This document shows positions 9,716-63,603 of a DNA stretch of 64,000 bases, one piece after another; the first letter of the stretch is position 1, and each line of letters starts with the position of its first letter. Under the pieces are notes generated by a model. It was given only the letters and a program-made list of their open reading frames with translations. It was not told where the DNA came from and did not search any database. A program made the translations under genes and the position numbers. The DNA comes from a virus: IMG/VR virus record IMGVR_UViG_3300045988_109836; one strand, written 5' to 3'.

Positions 9716-12700
9716 TTAGAACCATGACGGATGTTGTTTCTTGTAATCTTCGTAACTGAACATCCTTGTACATCCTGCAAAACAACCGTTTCCATCAATT
9801 CTATCTATAGAAGGGAATCCAATTTGTGCGCCGAATATTCTACCTAAATCAAATATCAAAGGCATATATGCGGCTAGTAATGTAGCGCCGCCTATCTTAC
9901 CAACCCATCTCGGCTGTGCCGTCATACTTGAACAGTCTTTAAACGTATTTACACAATTAAATACATGTTTCAAAACGCCGGATTCTATAAAAGCATTAAG
10001 TCCGCTTGAATTTGTTACATCACCAAACGTGTATTCTGATGTCTGTAAGTTACTACACCCCTCAAACATACTTTTAATGCTTACCGATACAGAATGTCCC
10101 GGTGGTGTAACGGGGTTGCCTTGTGAACCTGCTGTTCTCAAATTAATACACCCACTGAAACACTCTACATAAGTATAACATTCCGTCGATTCTGAAAACA
10201 AAGAAGATGTTATCGTTGTTAGTCCACTATTCTTAAACATTGCTAATGCACTAACTATGTTAGGAATTATTACCCCACTCACATTCAACAGACTGCTGCA
10301 CCTCTCAAACATTCTGTCACAAAACACTCTGTTTGCACTAAAATTAAATGCACTTGAACTTATACTTGTCAAATTTTCACATTCATAAAACGCCTGAGCC
10401 ATCGTTAATTCCTGTACAGAGCCAGAAAACATATTAGACGGAAGAGAAGATATACCGGAATCAATACAAAATGCGTTTGCGACTTGTCTTTTCCCCGAAA
10501 AATACTTGAATACTATTCTACAAGGAGATTGTAAATTAGTACAACCGCTAAACATATATTGGCAACTACTTATGTTTAATGCGCCTATATCGTTACTTAT
10601 ACTTGACATTCCTGTACATTTAGAAAACATATAATCCAAGAATGTTCCATTACTTGATGTCCTTAATTGTCCTTGTACCGAAGATATACCCTTACATCCG
10701 CTAAAACAATAGGAGTAATCGTTTATTATACTTCCTCCAAGTATGCTTGACAAATTTATGGGACCACTCAATCCGCTATCCTTATATGTCTGCACGAATG
10801 TACCACTTGATACAAACCCAAATAATCCTTCTGGTACGCCTTTCAGACTTGAACATCCCTCAAAAAAAGAATCGGTAGAACCGCTCATTAAACTTGTAGT
10901 CCAACTTACAACCGAATAGAGGCTGCTGCAATTCTTGAACGCCCCTTTATTCCACGAAGTCCTTACATCTTCCACAAACCATTTTATTACCTTTGTCAAG
11001 CAATTCTGGAAACCTGCAAAATTAGAAGCACTCCATGACAAATTAGCCTGCATGCCGTTAAAATCAAACAAAATTATCTTCGTTCCGCTTGAATTATAGG
11101 TGTGTGAGCTTGTTCCTATTGTCTGCTCGCCGTCACCCCATTTTACACGCAAATTGTTAAGTCCTGTAGAGGTTGTATTCATCACCGGAAGTGTCAAGTT
11201 CATACCATTTGACACAAGAACCTCCAATACCGCACCATCTTCCATCGTGATGTTGATTGTCTTTTGAAATTCTTCCGGACCTACCGTATAATTTCCTCTT
11301 TCCGTAAAATAATTCTGACTTGTAGCTACCCACGCATAGGTATCGTTACATGGCACAATCCATGATACAGAACCGGAAGAGCTTGTTACTCCAGAACTTA
11401 CATTGTCCTCTATAGTCACTCCAGAAATAGGAGAGCCGTTTTTGGTACGCACATTATATGTCACCTGGCATTTATTCCTCGGCATCGTAACATTAACATA
11501 TACATCATCATCTTGTACACTCACAGCGCCATTCTGGCTTTGATATCCTGCTTTTGTGGTCTGCCAGTTAAAATTGCGTGGCGGTACATATCCACCAAAA
11601 GTGGCTTTTCCGTTTGCGGTCGTATATTGTGATTCATTGCCAAGAACTACCTTCACTCTTTCGATAGGATTTCCGGTATCATCCACAACCGTAAAGTAAA
11701 CCCTGTACAGATTAACGCTCAATATAATAGTCGCGTTTGTGTCCGTTTCCTCTACCTGCACAAACGTGTATCCTTGTGTATATTCCGGTAACTTGCTTGC
11801 ATAGGCGTTTCCGCTTGTTCCGGCCTCTACAATGAAAGAACACTGTCCCGTCTGACCTGTATATTGCGTTTGTCCGTTAAACGTCACCTGTGCGTTCTTT
11901 ACTACACTTCCGTATCTATCTTTCACGAAGATAGTCAGTGTTACCATCTTTACAGTAAAGTTAACCGGAACCTGTGTATTTCCATATACAGAGAACGAAG
12001 ACACCACATCGTTACAATATCTATAAGAAGCCCTGTAATTATAACTTCCGGAAACCAATTGCGTAGTCACCAAACCAAGTTCATTAGTTATTAGTGGTTC
12101 GCCTTGTCCTATAACCTCAATTTCAGCGCCAGAAGCCTGTACGCCACCAACAGAAGCGTTAAACGTCACATTGTAAGGAACCGCAGCTTTCTCACTCATT
12201 CTTATGGTATATTCATTATCACCTGCCTTTATATTGACGTTTCCCTTTGCCGGGTTATAATCCTGGTGAGACGCGCTCCACTCCCATACGCCAAGTTCAA
12301 GCGTCCAACTTGCAGCAATACCGTTATTGTTAGAATACCTCGTTTCCCCGTTTATTGTCACCACTGCATTTTGAATAGGAGCTTCTGTCTGTATATCAAT
12401 AACCTTTACTGTCAGTCTTCCCGTTTGCTTTATCAAGTCTACAGTTATTGCCAACGGCTGGTTTATGACGACTGCCGTTCCGGTTCTTGTCTCATACCCT
12501 TCTCTTGTTACGCTCCACGGATAACTACCTGGTACCCTGTTGAATACAGCGTTACCGCTCGCGTCCGTGTTGGCCGTCTGTTGTTCTTCCCCTACACCCA
12601 GGACTATAGGCTGATTCTTTACTGGTTGGTTATTTATTCTAACTGTAAATATAATGTCATAGGTTACAAGCTTCAATTGCACCTCCACACGTTTGTTTTC

Positions 12701-15160
12701 CCCATTCACCGTTACGACACCTTGTTTGGTATAATAACCTTCTTTTTGTACGGTCCAGTTGTAACCACCGGATATCCGGATAAATTGTGCCTGCCCACCA
12801 CTCGTGCTTATCGCTTCCGTTCCTATGGTAACCAAAGCATCGTCAAGCGGTGTATCGTTATCGTCCGTAACATAGAAATCAATCAAATAGCCTATCTGTA
12901 CCAAATCGACTTCTACTGTCACATCCCTATCCACGACTTCTACCGTTCCTTCTTGTCCTTTAAACTCTGTTTTTGACACCTTCCAGGAATAGGAACCTGC
13001 TATCTCCACAAACTTTGCAATACCATTACTTGCCGTTTGTAGCGTCGTGCCGTTGAAAGTAACATTCGCTTTTGCTACCGGTAATCCGTTGCTTCTCACG
13101 ACAAAGTTTATATTGTATTTCGGTATAGGATTAAATTGTATGTCTATAACCGCATTTCCGTATATGGTAAAATCCTTTTCTACGGTTATATATCCTTCTT
13201 TCACGACCTTATAATGATACGTTCCTGCCGGATATACAAACCCTGTTGCAAGACCCTGTGCATTAGAGCTTCCGGTTTGATTAGGAATATCCTTGCCTGT
13301 CACCAATACAGAGGCACCGGACACCGGGTCTACGCCATCCCTTATACGGAATGTCACGTTATAGTACGGTATCTTTTCCATCTCAATTTCTATGTTGGTG
13401 GAATCCACAATTTCCGCGTTTCTTCTTACCGTATAGTAGTCTTCGTATTCTGCCGTATATTCGTATATTCCCGGAAATACCTCGAACGTCGCTATGCCGT
13501 TTTGTCCGGTATACTGAACTTTTCCTGCAAACGTTACCTTCACGTTCTGCATCCAGTCTTTCGTTTCCTTGTCACGGACAAAGAATGTCACGACACGTTC
13601 ATAGGCAGCACCTTTCAACTGTATGTATTCTACCGCATCCTTGTCCACTAATAGAGAATTCTCTACGCTTTCAAAGTTATCGGCTTCCACCTCATAATAC
13701 CATTGTCCGCGCGGTAATATTATCTTTGCTTCTCCGTTTACATCCGTTACAAGCTCTTCCCCGTTTATTGTAATTCTCGCATTCGGTATGTACTTGTTCC
13801 GATTAGAAAACACCTTGAACAATATCTGATATTCCTCTTCTCCAATATATGGTCTTATTAATTCGCTGCCGAATATGTTCTTATATCCAACAAGGTAGTT
13901 TTTTAGGAAGGTCTCTACAGTGAATTGCTTCTGATATGCGTTGTTTTTATAATAGGCGGCTATAATATCTCTTTCCCCCAAATATCCCTGTGAAAACGGC
14001 AAATACAACGGCTTTACATGAAAATCGTAAATATATACATACGGCTGGTTGGAAGTCGTTCTTTCCTGCACGAATATCGGTGCTATATACTTCATACCCG
14101 GCTTTATTGACAAGGCACGTCCGGACGGGAAATTAAGCGCTGGCGCATTCAAAAACTTCTCGTTCGTTGACAACAGTATTCCTTTTATGTAGTAATATAT
14201 ACCGTCGTTCTTTATGTCCAGATATTCGTTTTCGTGGAACCATAGAGAGCTTCCGGTTATCTGTCCGTTCTCCAGTATACCCATAGGCAACGGTTCACCG
14301 TCTACCGTCTCATATCCTGCCACTCCAAATTTAAGGTTCTGGTTCTCTATTGCAGATACCTTTACTTGTAATGATATTTCGTATGATAAATTAGGGTCTA
14401 TGATAATAAGCTTGTCCAAGTCAACCCTTCCGTCTATACCTACAGTCTGGCTACCGAAAAAAGTCATTGCATTAAATATCTCTTCATCATCTCCGTTTTC
14501 GTCCTGGGTAATGCTTATACTTTCCGGTATCAATAGAGGGTAATTATTCAAGTCCTCTACTCCTTTTGTATATTCATACGCTTTTGATACGTTCATTACC
14601 GTATTCGTCCGGTCACATGTGGGTGAGCTATATCCCATCGCCCATCCTGTAGCTTCCGGTCTCAACAAGGCAAATATAAACTCGTCCAAAGAATTATACC
14701 TTATCAATCGCAACAACTCACCCAATATCTCACCTTCCTTGCTTATGATGTCAAGTCTTCCACGTTTTGAATATTCTTCCAGGTAGTTGTAAAATAGATA
14801 TTCCATTTGTTCCTGGCTATCTACCATATTAGTAACCAAACCTCTATTCTGGATAAACATCTCAAACAGAATCTGATTCGTGTCTATCTTCTTGTATTGC
14901 CTTGCATACAACACTATCAAAGCGAATATATGGGTTATAGTTCCCCAAAAGACACGGAAATCCTCGTTCTCTTTCTTTTTTAGGAACGTAGGCAAAATTC
15001 CCCTTCCTTCCAGTTTTTCGAGCACGTTTTCTGCCCACCGTATCACTTCCTTGTCGTTTTCCTCGAAAAAACGACTGAAAGGCAAATTATCATATATAGG
15101 TGTGGACTGGGGTAAAAATAATCCCCCACACGGGTTTTCTTTCTTTATTCTTTTTTCCAT
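9716..15160 (-). CDS. tail fibre/adhesin with tandem beta-sandwich repeats and a C-terminal BspA-type leucine-rich-repeat domain
   Basis: The track ORF starts at TTG (15172); the ATG is at 15160 (MEKRIKKENP..). About ten repeats follow the pattern V-x-F-x-V-x-D...P-(I/V)-x-x-A-x-V-T-x-N-G...T-x-x-N-G-x-A-x-F...G-x-Y-x-(Y/W)-x-V-x-K-x-G-Y (about 11290..13800). The C-terminal ~500 aa (about 9716..11220) carry repeated ..F-x-(G/N/D)-C-(S/T)-x-L-x-S.. units typical of BspA-like LRRs. Confidence 0.8.
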   Translation of the reverse strand: MEKRIKKENPCGGLFLPQSTPIYDNLPFSRFFEENDKEVIRWAENVLEKLEGRGILPTFLKKKENEDFRVFWGTITHIFALIVLYARQYKKIDTNQILFEMFIQNRGLVTNMVDSQEQMEYLFYNYLEEYSKRGRLDIISKEGEILGELLRLIRYNSLDEFIFALLRPEATGWAMGYSSPTCDRTNTVMNVSKAYEYTKGVEDLNNYPLLIPESISITQDENGDDEEIFNAMTFFGSQTVGIDGRVDLDKLIIIDPNLSYEISLQVKVSAIENQNLKFGVAGYETVDGEPLPMGILENGQITGSSLWFHENEYLDIKNDGIYYYIKGILLSTNEKFLNAPALNFPSGRALSIKPGMKYIAPIFVQERTTSNQPYVYIYDFHVKPLYLPFSQGYLGERDIIAAYYKNNAYQKQFTVETFLKNYLVGYKNIFGSELIRPYIGEEEYQILFKVFSNRNKYIPNARITINGEELVTDVNGEAKIILPRGQWYYEVEADNFESVENSLLVDKDAVEYIQLKGAAYERVVTFFVRDKETKDWMQNVKVTFAGKVQYTGQNGIATFEVFPGIYEYTAEYEDYYTVRRNAEIVDSTNIEIEMEKIPYYNVTFRIRDGVDPVSGASVLVTGKDIPNQTGSSNAQGLATGFVYPAGTYHYKVVKEGYITVEKDFTIYGNAVIDIQFNPIPKYNINFVVRSNGLPVAKANVTFNGTTLQTASNGIAKFVEIAGSYSWKVSKTEFKGQEGTVEVVDRDVTVEVDLVQIGYLIDFYVTDDNDTPLDDALVTIGTEAISTSGGQAQFIRISGGYNWTVQKEGYYTKQGVVTVNGENKRVEVQLKLVTYDIIFTVRINNQPVKNQPIVLGVGEEQQTANTDASGNAVFNRVPGSYPWSVTREGYETRTGTAVVINQPLAITVDLIKQTGRLTVKVIDIQTEAPIQNAVVTINGETRYSNNNGIAASWTLELGVWEWSASHQDYNPAKGNVNIKAGDNEYTIRMSEKAAVPYNVTFNASVGGVQASGAEIEVIGQGEPLITNELGLVTTQLVSGSYNYRASYRYCNDVVSSFSVYGNTQVPVNFTVKMVTLTIFVKDRYGSVVKNAQVTFNGQTQYTGQTGQCSFIVEAGTSGNAYASKLPEYTQGYTFVQVEETDTNATIILSVNLYRVYFTVVDDTGNPIERVKVVLGNESQYTTANGKATFGGYVPPRNFNWQTTKAGYQSQNGAVSVQDDDVYVNVTMPRNKCQVTYNVRTKNGSPISGVTIEDNVSSGVTSSSGSVSWIVPCNDTYAWVATSQNYFTERGNYTVGPEEFQKTINITMEDGAVLEVLVSNGMNLTLPVMNTTSTGLNNLRVKWGDGEQTIGTSSHTYNSSGTKIILFDFNGMQANLSWSASNFAGFQNCLTKVIKWFVEDVRTSWNKGAFKNCSSLYSVVSWTTSLMSGSTDSFFEGCSSLKGVPEGLFGFVSSGTFVQTYKDSGLSGPINLSSILGGSIINDYSYCFSGCKGISSVQGQLRTSSNGTFLDYMFSKCTGMSSISNDIGALNISSCQYMFSGCTNLQSPCRIVFKYFSGKRQVANAFCIDSGISSLPSNMFSGSVQELTMAQAFYECENLTSISSSAFNFSANRVFCDRMFERCSSLLNVSGVIIPNIVSALAMFKNSGLTTITSSLFSESTECYTYVECFSGCINLRTAGSQGNPVTPPGHSVSVSIKSMFEGCSNLQTSEYTFGDVTNSSGLNAFIESGVLKHVFNCVNTFKDCSSMTAQPRWVGKIGGATLLAAYMPLIFDLGRIFGAQIGFPSIDRIDGNGCFAGCTRMFSYEDYKKQHPSWF

Positions 15161-15239
15161 GTTGAGACACAATTAATTGCGCAGTAAAAATACGATTAAT
15201 TTTGGATATTACGAAAACAAACGCAACGAAAATACTGTA

Positions 15240-15320
15240 GAACCGTTCCACTACCTCAATCTCCTTTGTTCAAGACAGTACAATAACAATAGAGGCTCTG
15301 AAGGTAGGGGTGTGGGTGAA
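15240..15320. repeat. left arm of a perfect 81-bp inverted repeat (IR-L)
   Basis: 15240..15320 is the exact reverse complement of 18280..18360, compared base by base. The match ends at 15239/18361 and at 15321/18279. Confidence 0.93.
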
Positions 15321-16773
15321 CAACAGAAGAGTAGAACAATATTCTACATATATAGGCATATATGATAAACCGTATAAAGGGGCTTATACTGGTGTTGTAA
15401 ATTTACCAAGTGAAGAAAGTAAATTGTATGCTATTAGTAATTCTTTTGGTATTGTATTCCCTATGTATTATAGGGATACATATATGGTTGGGTATTCTGT
15501 CTATCTGGCCAGTAGTAAATTTAATGAATGGCTTATAGCTAAGTTATATAAAGGTAATAATATATGGAGTAATAATTATCCAAATTCAATAGATGATTAT
15601 AATATTTTTGGTTTATCAATAAGTTATCCTTATTATTATTTTAAAGAAAATAATAATTCAGTAATTACATTTATTTCTTATGCAATTGACTTAAGAATAA
15701 CTTGGTATGTGATACTAATTTATGGAGATACCAGTTCTAAGTTAAGTTCATATATGTCGCAAAGATTTTATACCAGTAATGCAGTAGGAGACCAACATAA
15801 ATATTTTAATAATTATTCTGTAAAGAAATATGCTTCTGTTATTAAATGTATTCCTTCTTCAAGAGGTTATGTTTATATTTATACTATTGGAAACCACGGT
15901 AATTCTTTTTTTCGGATAATAAGAGGTGAAACATCGAATAATGGTTATCCAACTGAATATCAAATTAGTTATTTAGATATATCGGGATATCCTTACAAAG
16001 ACGAAGGTAGAGTAGAACATATGGGATGGTTAGTATTGAGAAGTGATAACGAAAAAGTGATTATTTTAGTAAAATCACAAGATAGAACATATGGAGATAC
16101 GCATGCTAAATTTTATTACGGAATATGGAAAGCGTCTGTAGGGCAATATGGAGAAAGTTTATTATCAAGTAGTAATTATAGATGTTATTACAACATTCCC
16201 TCTGCAATTACATCTGTAATAGGTGGTGATTACTGGGTATCGCCAGATTTAAAATGGTTATTCTACATATCACTAAGTGGAGCTAATTACCAAGGATTTT
16301 CTAAAGGATTACATACTATAAAAGGGTCATCAGCTCTTTTTGGAGATAATGGATGGACTGGAGTTTCTTATGAAATGGAAGGAGGAGGTACAGATATTTT
16401 AAACGCTTGTCAGAACTATTATATATTAGATGTTCAATTTAATAGCAAATCTGATAAAATAATGGTTCTTGGGAATTCTTCTAAAGGTGCATTTACAGAT
16501 GTGGAACCTCGATATAGTTATGCAGAAGGTATTCAACCAGATATAATACTTTATTTTATTTGGGTGGAAAATAAGAAAAAATTTATCAAATTAAATAGTT
16601 CTTTTATAGGAGGAGATGCGCTTTGGAATGATTATAATAACTCTATATCTGGAGGCAAAGGTAATGCCTATAAACCTTTAATCAATTTTGTAAATGGAGA
16701 AATTAACTTCATGTATCCTGGAGGGAATGAGCCGTTTAATGCGTATAGATATAATTTGAGTTTCGGAGATTGA
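15241..16773 (+). CDS. silent alternative C-terminal cassette of the 3420-aa fibre (no own start codon or promoter)
   Basis: This is the only plus-strand ORF with protein-like composition. Its frame opens right after TAG 15238..15240, at the outer edge of IR-L. It encodes NRSTTSISFVQDSTITIEALKVGVWV, identical to the fibre protein, then 484 unique codons. There is no in-frame ATG for about 50 codons after the repeat. The C-terminal ~200 aa are homologous to the current fibre C-terminus. Confidence 0.8.
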   Translation, partial: NRSTTSISFVQDSTITIEALKVGVWVNNRRVEQYSTYIGIYDKPYKGAYTGVVNLPSEESKLYAISNSFGIVFPMYYRDTYMVGYSVYLASSKFNEWLIAKLYKGNNIWSNNYPNSIDDYNIFGLSISYPYYYFKENNNSVITFISYAIDLRITWYVILIYGDTSSKLSSYMSQRFYTSNAVGDQHKYFNNYSVKKYASVIKCIPSSRGYVYIYTIGNHGNSFFRIIRGETSNNGYPTEYQISYLDISGYPYKDEGRVEHMGWLVLRSDNEKVIILVKSQDRTYGDTHAKFYYGIWKASVGQYGESLLSSSNYRCYYNIPSAITSVIGGDYWVSPDLKWLFYISLSGANYQGFSKGLHTIKGSSALFGDNGWTGVSYEMEGGGTDILNACQNYYILDVQFNSKSDKIMVLGNSSKGAFTDVEPRYSYAEGIQPDIILYFIWVENKKKFIKLNSSFIGGDALWNDYNNSISGGKGNAYKPLINFVNGEINFMYPGGNEPFNAYRYNLSFGD

Positions 16774-16785
16774 TAGTTTATAAAA

Positions 16786-16818
16786 AGCGTCCATACCAAT
16801 TAAAAAAGTATGGACGCT
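16786..16818. terminator. bidirectional rho-independent terminator at the centre of the invertible segment
   Basis: Perfect 11-bp stem agcgtccatac / gtatggacgct with an 11-nt loop. It is flanked by T-runs for both strands (plus: cgttttattt; minus: CTTTTTATAAAC). Lies between the two convergent stop codons (16771 and 16827). Confidence 0.75.
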
Positions 16819-16826
16819 CGTTTTAT

Positions 16827-19800
16827 TTAATCATTAAAAGTAAGAGAAGCATAATATGCTGTCGCATTCTCACTATACGATGGATAAACATAACTCATAT
16901 CCCATGTGTTCCCTAAATAATTCTGGTTAATACTAAAGAATGGTCTCAATTTACCACTTCCAGAAGCGTTATATTTGTTCCAGAAATTAGTAAATCCTAC
17001 TATATTATATGGTATATTTATCCATTTACCACCATTTAGCATTTCAAAACAAAATATATTAGTAGGATGTATACCTTCTACATAGGAATTAGCAATAATC
17101 GCTCCTCCTTGTGCTCCCTTTTGTCCATTACAGAGAACAATCATTTTAGAACCATCTTTATTAAATATAACGTCAAGAACATAATAATTAGCAAGAGTGC
17201 TTCTTAATTCTGATACAAAGTTATCATTAATAGTTATTGATGTTGCAGCCCAGCCGTTTTCATTAACTAAAACGGAAGTGCTTCTTACTATATTTATTCC
17301 TTTCGACGCTCCCCCAGAACCCTTGCCAACATAAAACATAAATCTCTTATCTTTTGACATCCACACATTACCTCCCATATTGTTAGTAATAGAAGAAGGT
17401 ATGTTATTGTAACAATGCCAATATTGCAAACTACTACTACCTTTTATATAATTCCATGTAGAAGAACCTTTCCATACCAATACATAAAAATCAAAAGTTA
17501 GATTTTCTTCTGAAAAAGTCTTTTGAGGGCCGTATACAAACAATATCAATTGATGTTTGGACAGATTAATATACACTCTCTTGTAAAAGAATATATTGAT
17601 TTTTCTTCCAACAGTAGGCCCATTAACTTTTAAGCTATAAGAACTCATAGAAGAGCCGATATCCCAAGATTGAAGTCTTATACTAATTTGATTGTTATTA
17701 TTTGGTGTTTCGGGTATCGCAATTATTTCTTGACTATTAATGCTTTCATTAATTGAATTCACTTCTTCTTGTGTTACTAAAACACATAAAGAATTACGTA
17801 CAGAATAATTATTACTATTTTGAAATACTGAACCTAAAGTGCTATCATTATCGCCTTTTACATAATTTAAAAAGCCTTTTCTTATATTCAATTGCCCCCA
17901 TGTTAACCTATTTGCACCACTAAATCCACAACATACGTAGTTCAAGTTTTGAAAATCACCATTAGAAGAAGGACTTAAATAAAAACTACCTTGTATATGA
18001 CTATATCCATACAGTCTATATGAACCATTCGCTCTATTAGAATCAAAAAATGTTGAAACTCCATATACATTAGGGGAGTCAACGAAAAGAGAAGCTACCG
18101 TTTTTAGATTTATCATCTCTAATTCATTTACTTTACTGGGGTCATATGTCAATACAGCTGCACACGAACTACTTGGATATGTCTTATTTGCCTCTATAAC
18201 TGGTTCTACATATAACCCAGAATACGAATTTTTACGAGATGTTGCGTCTCTTCCGAAATTACTGCTGCTAAATTCGTCCTTCACCCACACCCCTACCTTC
18301 AGAGCCTCTATTGTTATTGTACTGTCTTGAACAAAGGAGATTGAGGTAGTGGAACGGTTCGGATAATTAAAGTTTCCTGTTCCTGTTCCTCCCCATGTCG
18401 TGCTTCCTCCAGCTTCCCACCAGTAGTTACCCGGCTTTATCTTCAAAACTACCTGTCCGCTCGTGTTTGTAGTGCCGCTGTATGATGTACTACTGTTGTT
18501 GCTTGACAACTTCACTATTACACCGCTTCCTACTCTTGAACCTGTACTCACGTTGTTTACGTTTATTGTTATCGTTACTTCACTCGGTGTCAAATTGATT
18601 GTCAAACCTCCTGTGTTATTGCTTGTCGTATTTGACGTGACGTATCTTGTAGCGGTTACTACATATCTATTTGTCAGTCCAGATACGTATACAGTTGCTT
18701 GTCCTGCGCTGTTTGTCGTTACTGTCTGTGTTGCATGTCCTGCACCTACTTCACCAGAAGTCTGGTAACTACCATTTATACCGTACATATTTATTGTAGC
18801 ACCACTTACAGCCGCACCTGTATAAATATTCCGCACTATCACCGTCATACTCTTTATTGCAGTAGAATAAAATGCTGTAGCGTCACTGTTATGTCCTATA
18901 TTGCTAAAATTATAATTAGGAGTGATGGAATACGGTGTTTCGGTTGTCGTTGTACCTGTCACGAAATAATTCGCCAATTTTGCCGTTATCGTTGTAGTAA
19001 GACCTGCTATCCATGTATATGTAGCCAAATAATACACTACGTTATTTGCCGTCAATGATACTGTTGTTGCTACTCCTGCCGTTGTAAATACTGGCTTTAC
19101 CAGATTAGCAGTTCCCCACCATCCTAATACTGGCGTCGAAAATGGTATTTTTAGCCTAAATTCTGTACCTACACTCTTCGTCAATCTTACCGCATTCTGT
19201 GTAGTAGTTGCCAAAGGCATTGTTATCGTCGTGCTTCCGGCTACCCAATAACTCGTACCACCACCCCATGACAATGTATATGAACCTACTATCATTGGAC
19301 CGAATGACACTTGACCGCTGCTGTTCGTCGTTCCGGAAAATGTAACAGAAGAAAGGCTCTTGTTCGTCAACGTTACCGGACATCCGTTCGCATTTCCTTT
19401 TACTGCTCCTTGATAGTAGTCCTTTATGGTGAATGTTATAGAAGAACTTGTCTCGCTCATTTTCAGACTGTATGGGCTTGCCTGTCCTGCTGATAATGTA
19501 CCGGATAACGAATTATAATTCGTTTTTGAGAATGAGTAGCTTCTTCCGATACCACTCCTGTATGCAGTCCAGTTACCGCTACTGTCTGTCGTTCCTGTCT
19601 GTCCGAAATAGGAACATGATACACCGCTTATGTTTGTTCCATAATTAGAACTCTTTATATTGAATGTAAGACGTGCAGTTATATTGAGCGTCATTGTCCA
19701 GGATTGATTTTCAGATACCCACGTCCATTCTTGGCTTGCATTACTATAGTAACTTGCATAGTTTTTCGACGTATAGGTGTAATTAATACCAGCATATACA

Positions 19801-22800
19801 GTATTTGACTTTTTACCGCTTCCGTCCAACGTTATTTCTCCTGCCGGGGCATTTGAACCAGTAGGTACACTTCTTACTATCACCGCCCCACTTAAAGGAT
19901 AAGTGGCGGTAATGTTTGGAATTTTCTCTACAACCGTCAATGTCACCGTCCTTGTCGTTCTGTTCATCGTCACTGTATAGGGTGATGTCTGTGTGGCGGT
20001 TACTGTTCCTACATAGTTATTGAAATACTGTGCCGTGGCAGTCATTTGTCTATCAAGTCCACTTCTGTAAAAATCTCCTCCAGATGCTTTTGTCTGTCCG
20101 AAATAGGTGATTGTTCCCAAAAGCGCATTACTTGTATTGTAAATATTTGCTACCGTATTAATAGTTATCTTCTGATTACAAGCCAGCCATACATTTATAA
20201 GTTGCCCTGCTGATGTATAGGTAATCTTCTGGCTCGCATTGCTGTAATAATTCGGTCTTGTTACTGGTGATATTGTAATAGGTGTACCAAGATAAGTCAC
20301 AAAAGATACACTACCGTTCGCATCCAACGTTAACGGACTTGTAGAAGCTGCTGGACTGAAATTCATCTTCATAGATGAGTATTGTTCCATTGCAAAATTG
20401 ACAAATGTATCTGTTCCAGAAGCTGCCTTTCTTGTTATTTTTACAGCATTTGAACCACTGCTATTGTTATATACATTTACGTTATTCATCCCTTTATCAA
20501 AAAAGAAGTCTCTATAGGCGTTTAGTATCTTGTCATAGGTACATTTACTTAAAATTGTAGCATCTGACGCATTTTGTACATTACTTCCAGTTATGTCGTA
20601 TACAGTAGCCATTTCGAGATACCATGTAACTGGTCTGCTTCCGCCATTCAGATAAAAGAAGTTGGTTGTTGAAAAACTTCCAGTAGAACCACATCTTACA
20701 TAATAGGCATAAGTATACCATCCCCCTGTTCCGTTTCCATTATTAGAATCAACCCATTTTCTTACTGTATTATCTCCTGTTGCATTACTTGCAAAAACCA
20801 ATTGTCTTCCTGCCGGAACCTTTGCTCTGAAATATGCTACAAATTCCTTGTTTGCTGCTGTTGGTGTACCAAGATAGAAGCCGCCTAATCCAGGCGTTAC
20901 GGCAGAACTTGCATCCGTAGTGATTTCAAGCATATATTTAGGAGTGACTGGTATAACTTCACTTACCGACAAACTTACTGTAGCGGTTGAACGTGTCATT
21001 ACTACATTGAAAGGTGATGCAGTGCTTGACGTTATACTGCCTCTGTAATTGCCGTGATAAGTGGCTGTAACATCTACGTTTCTTGTTACAGAACTTCTAT
21101 ACAACGACACATTACCGCTGCTGTCTGTCTTTCCCGTCTGATGGAAATATGATACCGTAGCTCCACTTAGATTTGTTCCACTCGGCACATTTGACTTGAC
21201 GTTTATAGTTATCTTTGCCGTTACCGTCAAATCCATAGTCCATGACTGGTTGGCGGCTGTATAGGTATGTTTCTGTGTCGGATTGCTGTAGAAGTTCGGA
21301 TGTCCTACTACTGTAAACGTCATTTCCGTACCTATATATCCGTTGAATGTCACTGCACCGTTCGCGTTCGTAGTAAGTGTTCCGGTTGTACTTCCTGCCG
21401 TGTATTTTATCTGCAAGTTCTGATAATAGGTTGTCTGTGCTGGCGTTACTTCTCTTACTACAAGTGTAACCGGATTGGCTGCACGTGTCATTATGATATT
21501 GAATGGGTTTGGTGAGTTGTAAGCTATCTGTCCGGTATAGGATCCCAGATTTGATGCACTTACTGATATATTACGAGTGTTAGCACTCCAATATAATACT
21601 GCATTACCGCTACTGTCTGTTGTCTTCGTTTGACTGAAATAAGTTACTGTAGCTCCCGACACATTCGTTCCAGGCACGTTGTCCTTCACATTTACAGTTA
21701 TCTGTTTTGCACAAGTGAGATTCATGTTCCATTTCTCACTGGATGTAGTAAATATATGTGTTTGTTGATAATTCGTGTAAAACGGTCTTCTGTCCGGTGC
21801 TGATATGGTGAATGTGATGGGAATACCTAAATATGCCTCAAAAGTGTTTTTACCTGCATCTACTGTTCCATTTCCTGCTGCGGATGTATAAGCAAGTGTA
21901 AAGTTGGTATTATTGTCAAGAATTACACTCGCACCACCTGGTATCACTTCATATTGCTGCACTGTCACTACATGTTTGTTTCTCAACATAGTAACATTAA
22001 GCGGTGAAGCCGTGGTAGGTGCAATGGTTCCATTTACTGTACTATAATCGTCCTTGTCAAGCGAATACTCTTTACTCAATGCAGACCTGTACAACGAAGC
22101 GTTGCCGCTCGCGTCCGTCTTCACTATCTGTTCACTGTACGCAACCGTTACACCCTGGATATTCGTTTTCGCATATACATCTTTTACATTTACAGTTATC
22201 TTTGCAGTCACATTCAAATCGAACTTCCAGATTATACCGTCTTCATTCCATGTATACTTCTGTGTTGGGTTACTGTAAAAGTTAGAGTAGGAATCAGTCG
22301 TGAACGTGTATTCGAGACCCTTAATCAATAACTCGTTCGTATATCCGTTCTCATCCAATGTCAATTTTATTGTTCCTGCCCTGGAAGTCATTGTTACAGT
22401 CTTATTTGCAAGAAACGCTCTTCCCGCTGTACCGTATATTTCCGATACCTGTATACCTGCGTTAATCAGTTCGTATTGTACTTCTACATCCAACACTGTG
22501 CCATTCTCATTCTGCGGATGTATGAATGTATCTGTAGTAACTTCACCTGCAAGTACGGAATAGGTGTAATTACCTATCGGAACATTCTGCATCGTAACTA
22601 CACCGTTCGCGTTCGTTTCACCCTCAAACACGAGGTCTTTCAATACAGTGTTTTGTATTCTTACCAAAATTCCGTCCGGTGGTAAAACTCCTTGTGTAGA
22701 AACATTGAACGTTACCGGATATGACTTTGCAGCCAATTCTATATCCATTCTCGTTTCCGAACCCGTAGGCTTGAAATTCCCGGTCTTGGTTGTATAATAT

Positions 22801-25800
22801 TGCTTACTTGCACTGTAAGACATATTTACTGGAGACAGATACATATACACTATCCCGTCTGTATTTGTCGTTTGTGTCTGATTTACAGACATTCCGCTAA
22901 ATACAACCGTTACTCCACTCAATTTCCCGTACAAGTCGGAAATCACATATACCGGAATTCTCTTTGAACATGTATATACAAGGTCTTTTGTATTCGCATC
23001 TCTATAATTGATTATAGCTGTTGTACCGTTGCCGGAATAGAATCCTACTGGCTGCACCTGGAAACGTTCTGCAATCCCTGCATATACTGTTTTTGTAAAT
23101 TGTCCGCTTGCATTCGTCGTTACGTTCACACCGGAAGATGTACTATTGTCGTTGTAATAGCATGCAAGAACAAGACCTGTCTTTACCGGATTTGATGCTG
23201 TAGTCGAAATAGAGGGTATTATTTCTTTTACCGTGAATGTGACTGATTTTGTTCTTCTTGTTAATACTGCTGAATGTGTCTTGTCCGTAGGCAGATAGAT
23301 GTTTTCTGTCTTGCTGTTGAAATTACTGTTTCCTCCTCCATAGGTTATCGTATAATTTCCAGGCGGTATATTGAAATTTCCATTTCCTTGCGATATCAAT
23401 TGTCCGCTTGCATTCGTTGTTCCAGAAAAACTATATGCTTGTGAAGATGTTCCACCCCATGCACTCGTAACCGTTACCGGACAACTTTCTGCTGCTTTTG
23501 AATAGGGATTATTTGCTGTCAACGTCAGACTGAATGTCATTGCAGCATAACCCATGATTATATCTATATAGTCAACCGACAACGGGGGTGTAAATGTTCC
23601 GGTCTTTTTCGTATGGTCTGCCACTGTACACTCGTAGCTCATTGCGATAGGTGAGATATACACTCTTGCTGAACCATCACTTCCGGACGTAACGGTTTGA
23701 GGCAGTGACATTCCGGACACCTTTATAGTCGCATTTTCAAGCGGTCTTAGAGTGTTCTGCTGTTTTACTCTTAATTCAAGTCTTTTTGAAGCTGTTATTT
23801 CCATGAGTGTAGGTACACTCGCTCCGAAATCCCAGTTCTTAATCAGCAACCCTTCGTTCTCATAGAAGCCTTTCTGTTTGATTGTCAACTGATAATCAAT
23901 ACCTGGCATTACTTCCGGAAATATCTTGCCTTGTGCGTTTGTCGTATATTCTTTTACTGTACTATTGTACATATTTTTTACTGACACGACAATTCCTGCT
24001 TTTACCGGATTGAAATTCAGTGCAGCCTTTTGTTCTGCCACTATCTTAACGGTTACCTGGCTTACTGGTGTTGTTATCGTCACATCCACATAGAAAGACC
24101 TTGCAGCCGCATCACGTGTAGTGTTCGGCTGCACTGTCAGTACGGAACCCTTAAATGATGCTATATCGTCACTTGACACGTTAAACGTCAATTCTGCGCC
24201 ACCATCTGCAAAATTATATGGTTCGTCCTCACCGCCTAACTCTACCCGTCTGAATGTCTTTATATAGTCCATCAAGTCAAACGTTGCCCCTTTGTTGGGT
24301 ATGATTAGGTTTTCGGGTGTATGGACTATATAATAATAGCTATCGTTCGACAACGTTTCTGCCGTATTCTCACCATTGAATCTTACTGTCGTCGCGTCAC
24401 CAGATACACCAGGTATACTTTCGATTACATCTACTTCCGGCTCTATCTCCTTTCTCGTCATAGTGAAAGGAAGTTCTATGTCTTTCAGCTTTTCAAGTGT
24501 TACCGCCTGGTTTTCTACCGCATTGTAATATCTATGCGAAGCGTTCCAAGTATATTCCCCCGCCTCTGCTCCAAGCAACAACACGCCTATATCGTTCGTA
24601 TAGCCGGAATCCACCTTTATTCCCGTACCCTTGTTTATCAATTCGATATATACTCCAGAAATAGGGTCTTTTGTTATTGCGTCTGTCGCAGTGTATGTTA
24701 TTACCGTGTCCCTCAACTCTAAAAAGATTGTTTCGGGTACATCCTGGTCCTTAATAGTCACCGTTCCGGTATATCTCTTGTAATTTCTGTGTGTTACCGT
24801 ATATTCATAATCACCATTGGGTAATGTTATACTCGATACACCATTGACATTCGTTATATGCGTTTCTCCGTTAATCTGGATTTCCGCACCTTGTATGTAG
24901 TTACCGTTCTCTATGTCTCTGACAGTTAGTCTGAATGTATAGAATGCCTGTTCAAGTTCAATTATTTTTGATACCTCCGTACCATCCACAACAACGAAGT
25001 CGTTGACCGACATATAACCGGACTTAAAAGCGGTATATTCGTATGTTCCATTAGGAAGGCTGACAATCGCCACACCTTCTGAATCTGTTAAATATGTCGA
25101 TTCGTTGATTTTTATTGTCGCTCCTTCCAACACCATTTGTGTTGCCGCATCCAATACGGTAAACTTTATGGCATACGGAATCGCGGTCATTTCAACAAGT
25201 ATACAATTAGGGTCTTCTGCCGTTACCTCAATCTCCTTGTTGAGTTCTTGGTAGTCCTTTTTTACTACCTTCATTTCATACCTTCCTGTCTGCAATCCGA
25301 TTGTTGCCTGCCCTTCCTTGTCTGTTGTCTCTGTAATATCCTTTATGATAATATCGGCTTCCGGAACATAAATATTTCTATTTCTGTCTATTACAGCAAA
25401 ATTAACTTCCTTGGTTGTAAGAAACATTCTTTGGAATACCTCTACTGGCTGGTTTTCTACTGTAAAAACACTCTCTATAGTTTGAAAACCTGCCTTCTCT
25501 AAAGTGTATTCGTATATACCAGGTTCGAGACTTATTGTCGCTGTTCCGTCCTCTCCTGTTTCAGATGTGTAAACACTTGTCTTTACCGTAACACCTTGTA
25601 ACGGTGCTTCTCCTTCATATACAGTAAACGTTACTGGATAAGGTGTTGCAACAAAATCGTTTATATTTATGTATATAGGGTTGTTCAAAACCACAAACTC
25701 ACCCTTCTTTTGAGTCCAGTTCGTTTTTGAAAGGATGTATTCATATTCCCCGTTTTCGAGAAGAATGTTTGCCGTACCGTTACTGTCCGTAATGATTACC

Positions 25801-27089
25801 TTGTTTCCTATTGTTATATATGCACCCGGTACGGCTACATTCTTGGTATTTGTCACTGTAAACGAACACAAATATTTCTGTGACGCTATGACTGATTGCG
25901 ACCCTTTATATATATCACTTTCCCCTGCCGGATAGAAAATATTGGATAGACTGCTTCCCGAATCATACAAGATGTTTCCTTCCAAATCTCGCATTCTGAA
26001 ACCCTTGATACGCGGCAACATGTTCAAAGGAACCTCTTCGTCAAAGTAGGGGAAGAAGTATTCATCTGGTACATATTTCACGCCTTCTGCTGTCTTCACG
26101 ACTTCCAACAAATCATCCCATTCTACCTTTTTACCTGCTTCCCAGAAACGGAAATCAAGATATTTTGTCATTGCAATCTGGATATTTTTTCTTACATCCG
26201 CAATCACTGCATTAGGTGACAATTCCACACGGAAATCTACCCCCTCTTCACCACCTACATACATCCATTTTGCATTTTCAATCACTATTCCAAGCGTATT
26301 CCCTTGCAAGTCAAGTTCTGTCAATCCGAAATAGGGTGTTGCTTTTGTCAATAATTCTTCCAATTCATCATCCGTAAAGAAAGAACCGTTTTGCGTCACA
26401 AGGTAGATATGTGTCTTTCCATCCTCGCCCAAACCGACATTCATAACCTTTAGAATGCGTGAATCCAAATCCTGGAATATCTGTGTCCAGCCTTCCATTG
26501 TATCGGTGGAAAGCTTGTTGTTGTAATTTATTATTCTGTTTCTGAATGTCTCGTCGTCCTCATAGTCACGTCCACCAATAGCTGCGTATTCATTAGTGCA
26601 CTCTATATGTGTCAACGGTCTTGGCGATACCTCTGTAATACTATTCGCCTCCACATTCGTAGCCGACCCGGTTATAACACTGCGTACACTGATATATCCA
26701 TATCCCGACTTATCAACAGTAAACGGCTGGTCTACAATGAATTGTACTCCATTCTTTGATATAAACTTTGTGCCTACCTCGTACTGTGTACCTGGTTCAG
26801 CGAATACACGTACATAAGTAGAGGAACCAAGCGCTTCTTTTCTCGGACTGACACCGAACAACGCTGCCGACTTGTCAAGATAATTTCCTGTTGCCGATTT
26901 CGGGAAAATCTGTGCCTCCACTATGGCAATATCCTTTATCGCTTTTTGTGCCACCTTTGCGGTGCCATAGGCAACACCATTAAGTACAGAACCGTCCGCA
27001 ATATTTGAAACACGGTCGGTCTTGTTCAAGAACATTTCAATCCACAAATTTTTTAAATTTGCAATCGTATTCGCTGTTTTAGTAATCAT
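16827..27089 (-). CDS. baseplate-J-like wedge protein fused to a giant repetitive tail fibre (3420 aa); C-terminal 484 aa encoded inside the invertible segment
   Basis: The N-terminal ~390 aa have baseplate J (P2 gpJ / T4 gp6-like) character: ..GSVLNGVAYGTAKV.., ..YLDKSAALFGVSPRKEA.., ..GGRDYEDDETFRNRI... Next come carboxypeptidase-regulatory-like repeats. Five ~200-aa tandem modules occupy about 19450..22300. The variable tip lies downstream of IR-R. Confidence 0.85.
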   Translation of the reverse strand: MITKTANTIANLKNLWIEMFLNKTDRVSNIADGSVLNGVAYGTAKVAQKAIKDIAIVEAQIFPKSATGNYLDKSAALFGVSPRKEALGSSTYVRVFAEPGTQYEVGTKFISKNGVQFIVDQPFTVDKSGYGYISVRSVITGSATNVEANSITEVSPRPLTHIECTNEYAAIGGRDYEDDETFRNRIINYNNKLSTDTMEGWTQIFQDLDSRILKVMNVGLGEDGKTHIYLVTQNGSFFTDDELEELLTKATPYFGLTELDLQGNTLGIVIENAKWMYVGGEEGVDFRVELSPNAVIADVRKNIQIAMTKYLDFRFWEAGKKVEWDDLLEVVKTAEGVKYVPDEYFFPYFDEEVPLNMLPRIKGFRMRDLEGNILYDSGSSLSNIFYPAGESDIYKGSQSVIASQKYLCSFTVTNTKNVAVPGAYITIGNKVIITDSNGTANILLENGEYEYILSKTNWTQKKGEFVVLNNPIYININDFVATPYPVTFTVYEGEAPLQGVTVKTSVYTSETGEDGTATISLEPGIYEYTLEKAGFQTIESVFTVENQPVEVFQRMFLTTKEVNFAVIDRNRNIYVPEADIIIKDITETTDKEGQATIGLQTGRYEMKVVKKDYQELNKEIEVTAEDPNCILVEMTAIPYAIKFTVLDAATQMVLEGATIKINESTYLTDSEGVAIVSLPNGTYEYTAFKSGYMSVNDFVVVDGTEVSKIIELEQAFYTFRLTVRDIENGNYIQGAEIQINGETHITNVNGVSSITLPNGDYEYTVTHRNYKRYTGTVTIKDQDVPETIFLELRDTVITYTATDAITKDPISGVYIELINKGTGIKVDSGYTNDIGVLLLGAEAGEYTWNASHRYYNAVENQAVTLEKLKDIELPFTMTRKEIEPEVDVIESIPGVSGDATTVRFNGENTAETLSNDSYYYIVHTPENLIIPNKGATFDLMDYIKTFRRVELGGEDEPYNFADGGAELTFNVSSDDIASFKGSVLTVQPNTTRDAAARSFYVDVTITTPVSQVTVKIVAEQKAALNFNPVKAGIVVSVKNMYNSTVKEYTTNAQGKIFPEVMPGIDYQLTIKQKGFYENEGLLIKNWDFGASVPTLMEITASKRLELRVKQQNTLRPLENATIKVSGMSLPQTVTSGSDGSARVYISPIAMSYECTVADHTKKTGTFTPPLSVDYIDIIMGYAAMTFSLTLTANNPYSKAAESCPVTVTSAWGGTSSQAYSFSGTTNASGQLISQGNGNFNIPPGNYTITYGGGNSNFNSKTENIYLPTDKTHSAVLTRRTKSVTFTVKEIIPSISTTASNPVKTGLVLACYYNDNSTSSGVNVTTNASGQFTKTVYAGIAERFQVQPVGFYSGNGTTAIINYRDANTKDLVYTCSKRIPVYVISDLYGKLSGVTVVFSGMSVNQTQTTNTDGIVYMYLSPVNMSYSASKQYYTTKTGNFKPTGSETRMDIELAAKSYPVTFNVSTQGVLPPDGILVRIQNTVLKDLVFEGETNANGVVTMQNVPIGNYTYSVLAGEVTTDTFIHPQNENGTVLDVEVQYELINAGIQVSEIYGTAGRAFLANKTVTMTSRAGTIKLTLDENGYTNELLIKGLEYTFTTDSYSNFYSNPTQKYTWNEDGIIWKFDLNVTAKITVNVKDVYAKTNIQGVTVAYSEQIVKTDASGNASLYRSALSKEYSLDKDDYSTVNGTIAPTTASPLNVTMLRNKHVVTVQQYEVIPGGASVILDNNTNFTLAYTSAAGNGTVDAGKNTFEAYLGIPITFTISAPDRRPFYTNYQQTHIFTTSSEKWNMNLTCAKQITVNVKDNVPGTNVSGATVTYFSQTKTTDSSGNAVLYWSANTRNISVSASNLGSYTGQIAYNSPNPFNIIMTRAANPVTLVVREVTPAQTTYYQNLQIKYTAGSTTGTLTTNANGAVTFNGYIGTEMTFTVVGHPNFYSNPTQKHTYTAANQSWTMDLTVTAKITINVKSNVPSGTNLSGATVSYFHQTGKTDSSGNVSLYRSSVTRNVDVTATYHGNYRGSITSSTASPFNVVMTRSTATVSLSVSEVIPVTPKYMLEITTDASSAVTPGLGGFYLGTPTAANKEFVAYFRAKVPAGRQLVFASNATGDNTVRKWVDSNNGNGTGGWYTYAYYVRCGSTGSFSTTNFFYLNGGSRPVTWYLEMATVYDITGSNVQNASDATILSKCTYDKILNAYRDFFFDKGMNNVNVYNNSSGSNAVKITRKAASGTDTFVNFAMEQYSSMKMNFSPAASTSPLTLDANGSVSFVTYLGTPITISPVTRPNYYSNASQKITYTSAGQLINVWLACNQKITINTVANIYNTSNALLGTITYFGQTKASGGDFYRSGLDRQMTATAQYFNNYVGTVTATQTSPYTVTMNRTTRTVTLTVVEKIPNITATYPLSGAVIVRSVPTGSNAPAGEITLDGSGKKSNTVYAGINYTYTSKNYASYYSNASQEWTWVSENQSWTMTLNITARLTFNIKSSNYGTNISGVSCSYFGQTGTTDSSGNWTAYRSGIGRSYSFSKTNYNSLSGTLSAGQASPYSLKMSETSSSITFTIKDYYQGAVKGNANGCPVTLTNKSLSSVTFSGTTNSSGQVSFGPMIVGSYTLSWGGGTSYWVAGSTTITMPLATTTQNAVRLTKSVGTEFRLKIPFSTPVLGWWGTANLVKPVFTTAGVATTVSLTANNVVYYLATYTWIAGLTTTITAKLANYFVTGTTTTETPYSITPNYNFSNIGHNSDATAFYSTAIKSMTVIVRNIYTGAAVSGATINMYGINGSYQTSGEVGAGHATQTVTTNSAGQATVYVSGLTNRYVVTATRYVTSNTTSNNTGGLTINLTPSEVTITINVNNVSTGSRVGSGVIVKLSSNNSSTSYSGTTNTSGQVVLKIKPGNYWWEAGGSTTWGGTGTGNFNYPNRSTTSISFVQDSTITIEALKVGVWVKDEFSSSNFGRDATSRKNSYSGLYVEPVIEANKTYPSSSCAAVLTYDPSKVNELEMINLKTVASLFVDSPNVYGVSTFFDSNRANGSYRLYGYSHIQGSFYLSPSSNGDFQNLNYVCCGFSGANRLTWGQLNIRKGFLNYVKGDNDSTLGSVFQNSNNYSVRNSLCVLVTQEEVNSINESINSQEIIAIPETPNNNNQISIRLQSWDIGSSMSSYSLKVNGPTVGRKINIFFYKRVYINLSKHQLILFVYGPQKTFSEENLTFDFYVLVWKGSSTWNYIKGSSSLQYWHCYNNIPSSITNNMGGNVWMSKDKRFMFYVGKGSGGASKGINIVRSTSVLVNENGWAATSITINDNFVSELRSTLANYYVLDVIFNKDGSKMIVLCNGQKGAQGGAIIANSYVEGIHPTNIFCFEMLNGGKWINIPYNIVGFTNFWNKYNASGSGKLRPFFSINQNYLGNTWDMSYVYPSYSENATAYYASLTFND
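18280..18360. repeat. right arm of the perfect 81-bp inverted repeat (IR-R), inside the fibre ORF
   Basis: Encodes residues 2911-2936 (NRSTTSISFVQDSTITIEALKVGVWV) of the 3420-aa protein. It is the reverse complement of 15240..15320. Confidence 0.93.
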
Positions 27090-36716: not shown

Positions 36717-37646
36717 TTAATAAATCCTCTTCCAATAATAACCTCTCGCTGTAAAAACTGGGAAATTATCACAAGCCCTTTTTATAGCGGTTCCGTTCAC
36801 AAGATTTACGCTTCTTGCTGCATTACTAAAAGAATCATGAGTATTTATAAGATTCATATCTTTATCATATTGTTCTATTCTCATATTGCCTTTTCTTGGA
36901 TATTTTACTTCATACGACCTTTTAGAAGAAGCAATTTCGATATTTTCTCTTTCTTCATTTGTTTCTTTATATTTCCATTTAAACCCTTTACAAGTACGAT
37001 TCGGATTGTTACAAGCTGTTCTAATTCCCGAAGCTCCATAACATAACCCGTAAAATTTACCAGCTTCACATACACTTTCCCATTCTCTTATAAAATTACC
37101 GTTCAAATCATATTGCAAAATAGGTCTTTCTCTTTTTCTTGAAATAACTCTTTTCTTTCTTTCCTCAATAGTTTTCTTTTTACGATTATTATTAATTTTA
37201 CCTAATTTGGTTTTTCTTATTTTCTCTATTGATTCTTTTGAAATAACCTTTCCCTTATGAGCAAGTCCAATCTTTCTTTTTGCTTCTTCTGAATGTCTAT
37301 AAAACCTTTTCTTATAAACTTCTTCTCCTAAAAATCCTCCTCCACAACACAAAGTTCTATTATATCCTACTTCCGGATTTATAGAATCAAACTTTTCTAT
37401 ATAACTTCTTTCAAGATTATTAAATTCTTCTTTAGAATCTCCTTCATAAAATTCTAAAATATCTATTTTAAAGTTATGCTTGCCGTACTTTTTAAATGCT
37501 TGTTCTATAACAATACCACTGCCTTTATATCCATCATTCAGTCTATCAGTAATATGTTGCCCGATATAAATTTTACCGTTTATATTATTAGTTGTTTTAT
37601 AGATAAACTTATATTTACGGTTTGTCATTTTGTTAGCTGTTCTCAT
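36717..37646 (-). CDS. GIY-YIG homing endonuclease (free-standing)
   Basis: N-terminal ..YKFIYKTTNNINGKIYIGQH.. (GIY-x10-YIG) with ..R..E..N.. further downstream. Basic repeats resembling NUMOD/IENR DNA-binding modules in the C-terminal half. Starts 4 nt after the terminase stop; an alternative ATG lies at 37628. Confidence 0.8.
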   Translation of the reverse strand: MRTANKMTNRKYKFIYKTTNNINGKIYIGQHITDRLNDGYKGSGIVIEQAFKKYGKHNFKIDILEFYEGDSKEEFNNLERSYIEKFDSINPEVGYNRTLCCGGGFLGEEVYKKRFYRHSEEAKRKIGLAHKGKVISKESIEKIRKTKLGKINNNRKKKTIEERKKRVISRKRERPILQYDLNGNFIREWESVCEAGKFYGLCYGASGIRTACNNPNRTCKGFKWKYKETNEERENIEIASSKRSYEVKYPRKGNMRIEQYDKDMNLINTHDSFSNAARSVNLVNGTAIKRACDNFPVFTARGYYWKRIY

Positions 37647-37650
37647 AATA

Positions 37651-56942: not shown

Positions 56943-56982
56943 AGCTATAAATTTTTCTGCTAATGTACGAATTTTGCACAAT

Positions 56983-62084: not shown

Positions 62085-62096
62085 TGTAAACAATTT

Positions 62097-63599: not shown

Positions 63600-63603
63600 G
63601 TCC

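Follow-up and report, generated by a model that had tools for sequence, protein, structure and literature searches.

What is achieved by a long, perfect inverted repeat that has one of its arms buried in the coding sequence of a giant tail-fiber gene? The question is raised by IMG/VR virus record IMGVR_UViG_3300045988_109836, from which a stretch of 64,000 nucleotides (nt) was analyzed (here called the window, meaning that whole stretch), and where two identical 81-bp arms enclose a segment of about 3.1 kb carrying two alternative ends, or cassettes, for the fiber protein. We hold with high confidence that this segment is a real, recurrently inverting switch of the fiber tip. The best overall explanation would be a reversible host-range switch flipped most likely by RecA-mediated homologous recombination, and we give this fuller account roughly an even chance of being right. 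The most interesting property of the switch is the apparent absence of a dedicated invertase.

Arms, reading frames and cassettes

A repeat finder run over positions 13000-21000 returned the arms 15240-15320 and 18280-18360 as complementary at 81/81 nt (100%), with 2959 nt between them. Complementarity, when both strands are read, ends at 15239/18361 (a versus c) on the outside and at 15321/18279 (c versus g) on the inside, and the coordinates and break points proposed earlier in a sequence-only reading of the window thus proved correct to the base. The runner-up inverted repeat in this 8-kb region measured 39 nt at 74%, so that the 81-nt pair is by far the longest, and the repeat scan found only the one arm pair there.

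The proximal arm (18280..18360, minus strand) lies inside the fiber gene, a minus-strand open reading frame (ORF) of 3420 aa at 16827..27089, where it codes for residues 2911-2936 (NRSTTSISFVQDSTITIEALKVGVWV) plus 2 nt of the next codon. Upstream of the arm, residues 1-2910 (18361..27089, minus strand) make up the constant part of the gene, with an N-terminal Baseplate_J domain (Pfam, 3.8e-16 at residues 68-194) followed by many CarboxypepD_reg (5e-33) or Ig-like repeats. The distal arm (15240..15320, plus strand) repeats 18280-18360 on the opposite strand without a mismatch, and it opens on the last letter, G, of a TAG codon at 15238-15240 that lies in the same frame. From this TAG, the plus-strand frame runs through the same 26 residues as NRSTTSISFVQDSTITIEALKVGVWV and then through 484 aa to a stop at 16771-16773. 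Translation agrees on all these points with the sequence-only reading, which had placed the same peptide at the right arm within the giant ORF and at the left arm in frame with a plus-strand ORF closed by the TAG. The outer boundary, where CTGTAG gives way to AACCGTTCC, is common to most relatives.

Cassette A (16827..18282, minus strand; 484 aa and a stop) is the tip currently fused in frame to the constant part, and the closest relatives, L001 and L002, carry it in the fused slot at 96% aa identity. Cassette B (15319..16773, plus strand; likewise 484 aa and a stop) is the detached alternative, in frame with the distal arm. The two are homologous, though highly diverged (BLASTP E = 9e-39, 29% identity over 510 residues, the 26 repeat-coded residues included). 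Apart from them, the segment holds only a 53-nt spacer between their stop codons, and neither a chaperone gene nor a recombinase gene was found within or beside it. A chance ORF as the origin of the detached cassette was ruled out, since 40 of 41 detached cassettes are intact.

In this arrangement, the cassette that lies next to the proximal arm would be joined through it to the 2936 constant residues of the Baseplate_J fiber, and the other cassette would be cut off by the TAG that borders the distal arm on its outer side. Inversion would thereby swap the last 484 residues and leave the protein at 3420 aa. The earliest in-frame Met of cassette B stands 49 residues past the repeat, in keeping with the earlier statement that no in-frame ATG occurs for about 50 codons. 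The accompanying claim, that no expression of this cassette is possible in its present position, is probably right but falls short of proof, as two in-frame GTG codons occur within the distal arm (15310 and 15316) and public gene callers begin a 485-aa ORF (P0001) at the second of them.

The spacer itself encodes a hairpin (16779..16825; -21 kcal/mol, z = -5.7) between the convergent stops, whose 11-bp stem is bordered by an A-run and, opposite, by a T-run. Each of the 40 relatives checked likewise has a strong hairpin in its stop-to-stop spacer (-17 to -36 kcal/mol; z = -4.9 to -9.4), with three unrelated stem sequences in use among them. The hairpin is read as a bidirectional terminator that would end transcription in both states of the segment. 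The consensus terminator scan did not list the hairpin of the window, the 11-nt loop of which exceeds the 3-8-nt limit of that scan; the scan, which also covered sigma-70 promoters, gave no useful information in this organism.

What kind of tip might the cassettes encode? No sequence-level family was found for them in PDB or Pfam. An AlphaFold model of cassette B, built with 30 homologues, is all-beta (pLDDT 69.6, pTM 0.77), and Foldseek matched the model with beta-propellers, including neuraminidases, a PL24 lyase, GH43 and WD40-like proteins, at E values down to 1e-5 and TM scores of 0.23-0.34. The tip thus models as a propeller-like distal domain, a prediction of fold class alone that carries no claim of sialidase or lyase activity. 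Such a fold suits a receptor-binding tip that binds or cleaves glycans, and the two alternative tips would presumably bind different receptors.

Orientation of the segment in related genomes

A protein-guided scan of IMG/VR recovered 47 loci, mostly on contigs of 100-108 kb. An inverted repeat of 62-87 nt (91-100% identical) bounds a segment of about 3.1 kb in 40 of them; in each of the other seven, the contig breaks off within the module or close to it. In 39 of the 40, each of the two cassettes stays open for 504-524 codons in the frame of its arm. The exception is L020 (14002-17174), whose detached cassette is broken and open for 95 codons; this might be an error of assembly or a switch in decay. 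A search of IMG/VR for an exact 50-nt stretch of the arm found no match, because the arm allele of this phage is rare.

The orientation of 41 segments was set by their constant region, and pairs of genomes were counted where the segments align over at least 90%. This gave 24 direct and 24 inverted full-length pairs. Among pairs of about 98.9% identity or higher, five were inverted and three direct. Orientation is therefore uncoupled from sequence divergence, as fast and reversible inversion predicts. The sequence-only reading had suggested a search for relatives assembled in the opposite orientation, and had foreseen that, with 15321..18279 flipped, the plus-strand cassette becomes continuous with the constant part of 2936 aa; the 24 inverted pairs show exactly such an outcome.

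The clearest single case is the pair L007/L035, where the flanks align directly and the whole 3212 bp from arm to arm is inverted at 99.84% identity, with breakpoints exactly at the arms. The same pattern was seen in L009/L025, L017/L042, L029/L042 and L008/L040, and other inverted pairs include L008/L036 (99.09%), L013/L027 (99.08%) and L039/L047 (98.9%). The cassettes of the family fall into about 19 types at 85% identity, many of which were seen both fused and detached, and additional human-gut assemblies supplied further cases of a cassette in the opposite slot. A homologue search with cassette B returned stand-alone ORFs of about 485 aa only, with zero giant fusions, and was therefore unusable for orientation counts.

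Other observations concern the surroundings of the segment and the ends of contigs. In L007/L035, the constant region beside the switch (about 2 kb upstream of the arm) is only 82% identical over 2.1 kb, as compared with 99.84% for the segment and 98.9% for the downstream flank. Genomes also differ in how many repeat domains precede the arm, one and the same query span covering about 1.5 to 3 kb, and the fiber shaft itself looks like a mosaic produced by recombination. The assembly stops at an arm in six contigs, of which four are 94-108 kb long: at the distal arm in L017 and L036, and at the proximal arm in L024, L028, L032 and L037. Such ends fit an unresolved or mixed orientation and equally a repeat longer than the k-mer of the assembler. 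A 15.9-kb contig of this phage (L261; ENA ERZ19666779 k141_21267) stops 51 nt into the proximal arm despite a k of 141, longer than the repeat. The arm may be heterogeneous in the sample concerned, a hint that we regard as suggestive and not as interpretable.

How the segment is flipped

If the segment inverts, what carries out the reaction? The arms themselves offer one line of evidence. A 58-nt core was compared across 41 genomes, in which it occurs as 28 alleles. The two arms of one genome differ by a mean of 0.46 mismatches, versus 3.06 between genomes, and are identical in 32 of the 41; none of 10,000 permutations matched the observed within-genome similarity. The full arm is 100% identical in 26 of the 41 genomes, and the inner edge of identity shifts between 78 and 87 nt with the similarity of the starts of the two cassettes. 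The arms evolve in concert. Homogenization over 60-80 nt therefore speaks for heteroduplex formation between the arms, that is, for homologous recombination, as the 2-8-bp exchange region of a site-specific enzyme would be insufficient.

A second line of evidence comes from the gene content. A composite genome of about 104 kb was put together from the window, L048 (on the ENA contig of the window itself), L050, L200 and L125 (a contig with 99-100% identical marker proteins), with L222 filling a 1.3-kb gap, and essentially all of its ORFs of at least about 120 aa were run against Pfam or PHROGs. These searches found no Resolvase, Phage_integrase or IS110-type (DEDD) domain in the composite genome. 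They are set beside a RecA that occurs in the contig of the closest relative (5.4e-75) and is full-length in 73 of 75 family loci, along with other recombination and repair genes, including a SbcD-like phosphoesterase, a UvrD-like helicase, a SNF2 helicase and an NAD-dependent ligase. A third line concerns the absence from the arm of any dyad-symmetric core above chance. Taken together, the lack of an invertase, the presence of RecA, the concerted arms and the missing dyad core favor homologous recombination over a site-specific invertase.

On balance, then, homologous recombination between the arms probably drives the flip. The reaction would take place in the pool of replicating phage DNA, where the phage's own RecA, helped by accessory recombination and repair proteins, would act as the catalyst, with no dedicated Gin/Hin-type or tyrosine invertase involved. 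Inversion would then proceed within a single infection or population. A bolder and more tentative version, to which we give slightly less than an even chance, is that of a stochastic host-range switch lacking a dedicated enzyme, in which a virulent phage family would maintain two identical in-frame repeats of about 80 bp and its RecA machinery would flip the segment so that every burst carries both beta-propeller tips, mirroring the phase-variable capsules of the Bacteroidales hosts.

Several points weigh against this account. All of the flips were seen between assembled genomes and none at the level of reads, and orientation in short-read assemblies depends on reads or read pairs that cross the 81-bp repeat. 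Among the 30 stretches that a degenerate arm pattern picked out of metagenomes, no single sample carried a cassette pair in its two orientations. This phage in precisely its flipped form, which would show cassette A as a stand-alone ORF, was absent from a collection of 15 billion proteins, though only 3-4 contigs of the phage exist. RecA lies outside the 64-kb window and was seen in relatives only, the closest of which has 99-100% identical flanking genes. Moreover, homologous recombination could homogenize the arms while a separate enzyme flips the segment.

The last of these points leads to the most serious alternative, namely the same tip switch flipped by a site-specific recombinase that crosses over inside the 81-bp arm, be it an invertase of the Bacteroidales host acting in trans or a highly diverged protein of the phage. 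The strongest argument for it is the outer arm boundary, which is sharp, conserved in most of the family and opens with the 9-bp palindrome GAACCGTTC, as would suit a recognition site. Bacteroidales genomes encode many invertases, some of which act on distant sites, and a host enzyme of this kind would be beyond the reach of searches in the phage genome. Several phage proteins of 200-480 aa have no annotation or family assignment, and a miss in Pfam does not amount to proof of absence. To our knowledge, every characterized phage tail-fiber inversion system has a dedicated recombinase. Against these considerations stand the negative domain searches in the tested ORFs of the composite genome, the want of a dyad core, and the absence from the window of the Mpi consensus ARACGTWCGT. 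A crossover region of 2-8 bp would also leave the homogenization of the arms unexplained. Finally, there is the evidence of a sub-lineage (L008, L042 and L045; also L266, L282/L285 and L283) whose outer flank differs and whose distal arm is shortened to 62-68 nt, having lost the first 16 nt and, with them, the GAACCGTTC palindrome. Both cassettes are intact in this sub-lineage and are found in either slot, and its genomes still show recent flips, as in L008/L036. We consider a site-specific enzyme possible but unlikely.

A second alternative dispenses with programmed and frequent switching altogether. Here, the detached cassette would be a stored spare, and rare swaps between co-infecting phages, by double crossovers in the arms and the central spacer, would be fixed by selection. 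That all of the flip evidence comes from assembled genomes of different samples is certainly compatible with this notion, as is the re-assortment of cassette partners among genomes; the divergent constant region of L007/L035 next to its nearly identical segment resembles a horizontal exchange of modules. Nonetheless, rare swaps would not readily account for a 24:24 split of orientations in which both occur even at 99% identity or more, for detached cassettes that are intact in 39 of 40 relatives, or for arms whose identity is actively maintained. Exchange between genomes at inverted, identical arms is, in any case, the same reaction as a flip within one genome. This explanation is accordingly judged improbable.

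It is less likely still that the orientations are artefacts of assembly, in which the 81-bp repeat exceeded the k-mer and the assembler chose an arbitrary orientation for the 3.1-kb segment. Many of the contigs are SPAdes NODE contigs, six break at an arm and some public contigs of about 3.1 kb consist of the segment alone, but reads of 100-150 nt and read pairs do cross an 81-bp repeat, assemblers normally break at such places and do not guess, and MEGAHIT k141 contigs hold the intact module. In addition, the in-frame arms, the two intact homologous cassettes and the central hairpin are independent of assembly and would be senseless without inversion.

An equally slim prospect is that both cassettes are expressed together, with B made in place from a GTG of the arm as a free separate tip or accessory protein of about 485 aa: the two GTG codons, the annotated P0001, the uniformly stand-alone homologues and a plus-strand TAATTTTG motif of the outer flank, directed into the detached cassette and resembling the Bacteroides -7 promoter box, would allow it, but some relatives lack TAATTTTG, the stop codon lies directly against the arm, every cassette type is fused to the constant part in some genome, and conservation of the 26 shared residues is that of a portion of the fused protein.

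Known systems and phage context

Inversion of tail-fiber genes is a textbook mechanism, known from temperate enterobacterial elements that encode their own invertase. The sequence-only reading had likened the module to the Mu G, P1 C and p15B Min switches, and the likeness is borne out. As in Mu G/Gin, the P1 and P7 C/Cin systems, e14 P/Pin and p15B Min, a segment of about 3 kb lies between inverted repeats inside a tail-fiber gene, and a constant N-terminal part is joined to one of two C-terminal parts while the other is detached and promoterless, the outcome being alternative host range. The differences that had been listed also stand. The arms consist of 62-87 nt of coding sequence across the family, in contrast to 34 bp in Mu; no serine invertase (Resolvase) gene was found beside the segment or in the composite genome; and the segment contains no U/U' fiber-assembly (chaperone) genes. 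The fiber is, moreover, a 3420-aa Baseplate_J fusion with predicted beta-propeller tips. Nor was a gix- or cix-like dyad site found in the arm. Unlike the temperate phages and plasmids of the Mu G class, this phage has no integrase that could be found, looks virulent and has a probable Bacteroidota host. The module works like the Mu G class, yet it is not a member: an invertase gene, dyad sites and co-inverting assembly genes were looked for and not found.

Another kind of system that comes to mind is the shufflon. The Rin shufflon of Bifidobacterium prophages is reportedly a phage element from a human-gut setting, in which rearrangement alters the C-terminus of a receptor-binding or adhesin protein. 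The present module is like Rin and the R64 Rci shufflon in the latter respect. Shufflons, however, possess several segments, repeats of about 19 bp and an adjacent tyrosine recombinase, whereas here there is one segment with long arms and no recombinase was found. A shufflon was therefore rejected, given the single segment and the lack of a Phage_integrase match. Diversity-generating retroelements (DGRs) of Bacteroides phages, such as the hankyphage, share the purpose of diversifying the receptor-binding protein of a gut phage, but they do so by mutagenesis and not by a choice between two stored cassettes. A DGR was likewise rejected, as there was no reverse transcriptase and no template/variable repeat pair, the sole long repeat being the inverted one. 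The only match resembling a reverse transcriptase was a weak one, of RVT_3 on an RNase H protein (E = 0.0014; 18.9 bits versus a Pfam cut-off of 21.6).

By mechanism, the closest analogue may be flip-flop isomerization by general recombination, as seen in plastid genomes and in the L/S segments of herpesviruses. These share with the present module identical inverted repeats, no assigned dedicated recombinase and the occurrence of both isomers among close relatives. What was found here is what homologous recombination calls for, namely long, identical inverted repeats in concerted evolution, an available RecA and no detectable site-specific enzyme. The flip-flop systems differ in that their repeats span 400 nt to many kb and re-splice no coding sequence, whereas the 81-bp in-frame repeats of this phage would swap a protein domain. 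An invertible region of about 30 kb with repeats of 400-700 nt has been described in Anabaena cyanophages, where two isomers coexist in lytic phage populations (10.64898/2026.02.14.705889).

A survey of gene-altering programmed inversions in bacterial genomes identified prophage tail-fiber genes as an enriched class (Milman et al. 2023; PMC9881135). As in the present module, the inverted repeats of such cases overlap coding sequence, and inversion alters the product of the gene. That survey dealt with bacterial genomes only, its confirmed tail-fiber cases were Mu-like prophages, and free virulent phages and recombinase-less systems fell outside its coverage. No published description of the present module was found in the literature.

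What is new, then, is a tail-fiber tip switch in a widespread, uncultured family of Bacteroidota gut phages with no integrase and, apparently, no invertase. If general recombination does drive the flip, then maintained repeat identity alone could encode a programmed phenotypic switch, and searches for invertible elements that demand a nearby recombinase gene would miss switches of this kind. The module might also be the phage-side counterpart to capsule phase variation in Bacteroides, and could help to explain the long-term coexistence of phage and host in the gut. For engineering, the arm, the beta-propeller cassette and the hairpin would provide natural, exchangeable receptor-binding modules.

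The switch is bounded on its distal side by an outer non-coding flank (15161..15239) that extends from the distal arm to the ATG (15160-15158, minus strand) of the next gene and supplies the TAG that closes the detached frame. This 79-nt flank is almost invariant across the family, near-identical in most relatives, and may hold the promoter of that next gene. The gene itself (9716..15160, minus strand) encodes a second fiber-like protein of 1814 aa with CarboxypepD_reg repeats, which lies downstream of the switch and bounds it but is not part of it.

The minus strand carries every real gene of the window, and together these genes form modules for structure and replication such as a large tailed phage would have. 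Besides the two fiber genes, they encode a portal (60384-62093), a tail-tube initiator, a BACON-domain protein, a DnaB-like helicase, a primase, MazG and an intein-bearing large terminase, after which comes a GIY-YIG endonuclease; there is also a weak match, below the Pfam cut-off, to the SU10 major capsid protein family. Judged by the portal protein, the closest phages in culture are Chryseobacterium phage MA9V-3 (36%) and the DAC/SJC phages of Bacteroides thetaiotaomicron (35%), while the portal of an unannotated human fecal phage contig reaches 57% identity. Megablast of 14500-19500 against GenBank phages found no relative at the nucleotide level. The exact proteins of the window are present on human-gut ENA contigs of 104,281 and 104,195 bp, and the family looks like one of uncultured, virulent, myovirus-like human-gut phages of about 104-108 kb, with no integrase found. 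A Bacteroidota host, as proposed earlier, is plausible in view of the BACON-domain protein and of the Chryseobacterium and Bacteroides phages that are the nearest isolates.

A few other genes deserve mention. A Zeta-toxin domain protein (1.6e-34; 59448-60377, minus strand) lies inside the head/portal module, and a 622-aa protein with NUDIX and DUF5856 domains (55140-57008, minus strand) occurs among the structural genes, as does the BACON-domain protein (518 aa; 62097-63653, minus strand), whose domain points to a Bacteroidota or mucin-glycan setting. Selfish elements are unusually plentiful in the family. The large terminase gene (36717-39765, minus strand) carries a Hint/intein insert followed by a GIY-YIG/NUMOD homing endonuclease, and relatives have inteins in DNA polymerase III alpha and in a UvrD-like helicase, the latter with a LAGLIDADG domain (L048:14909-17281; L200:12599-15112).

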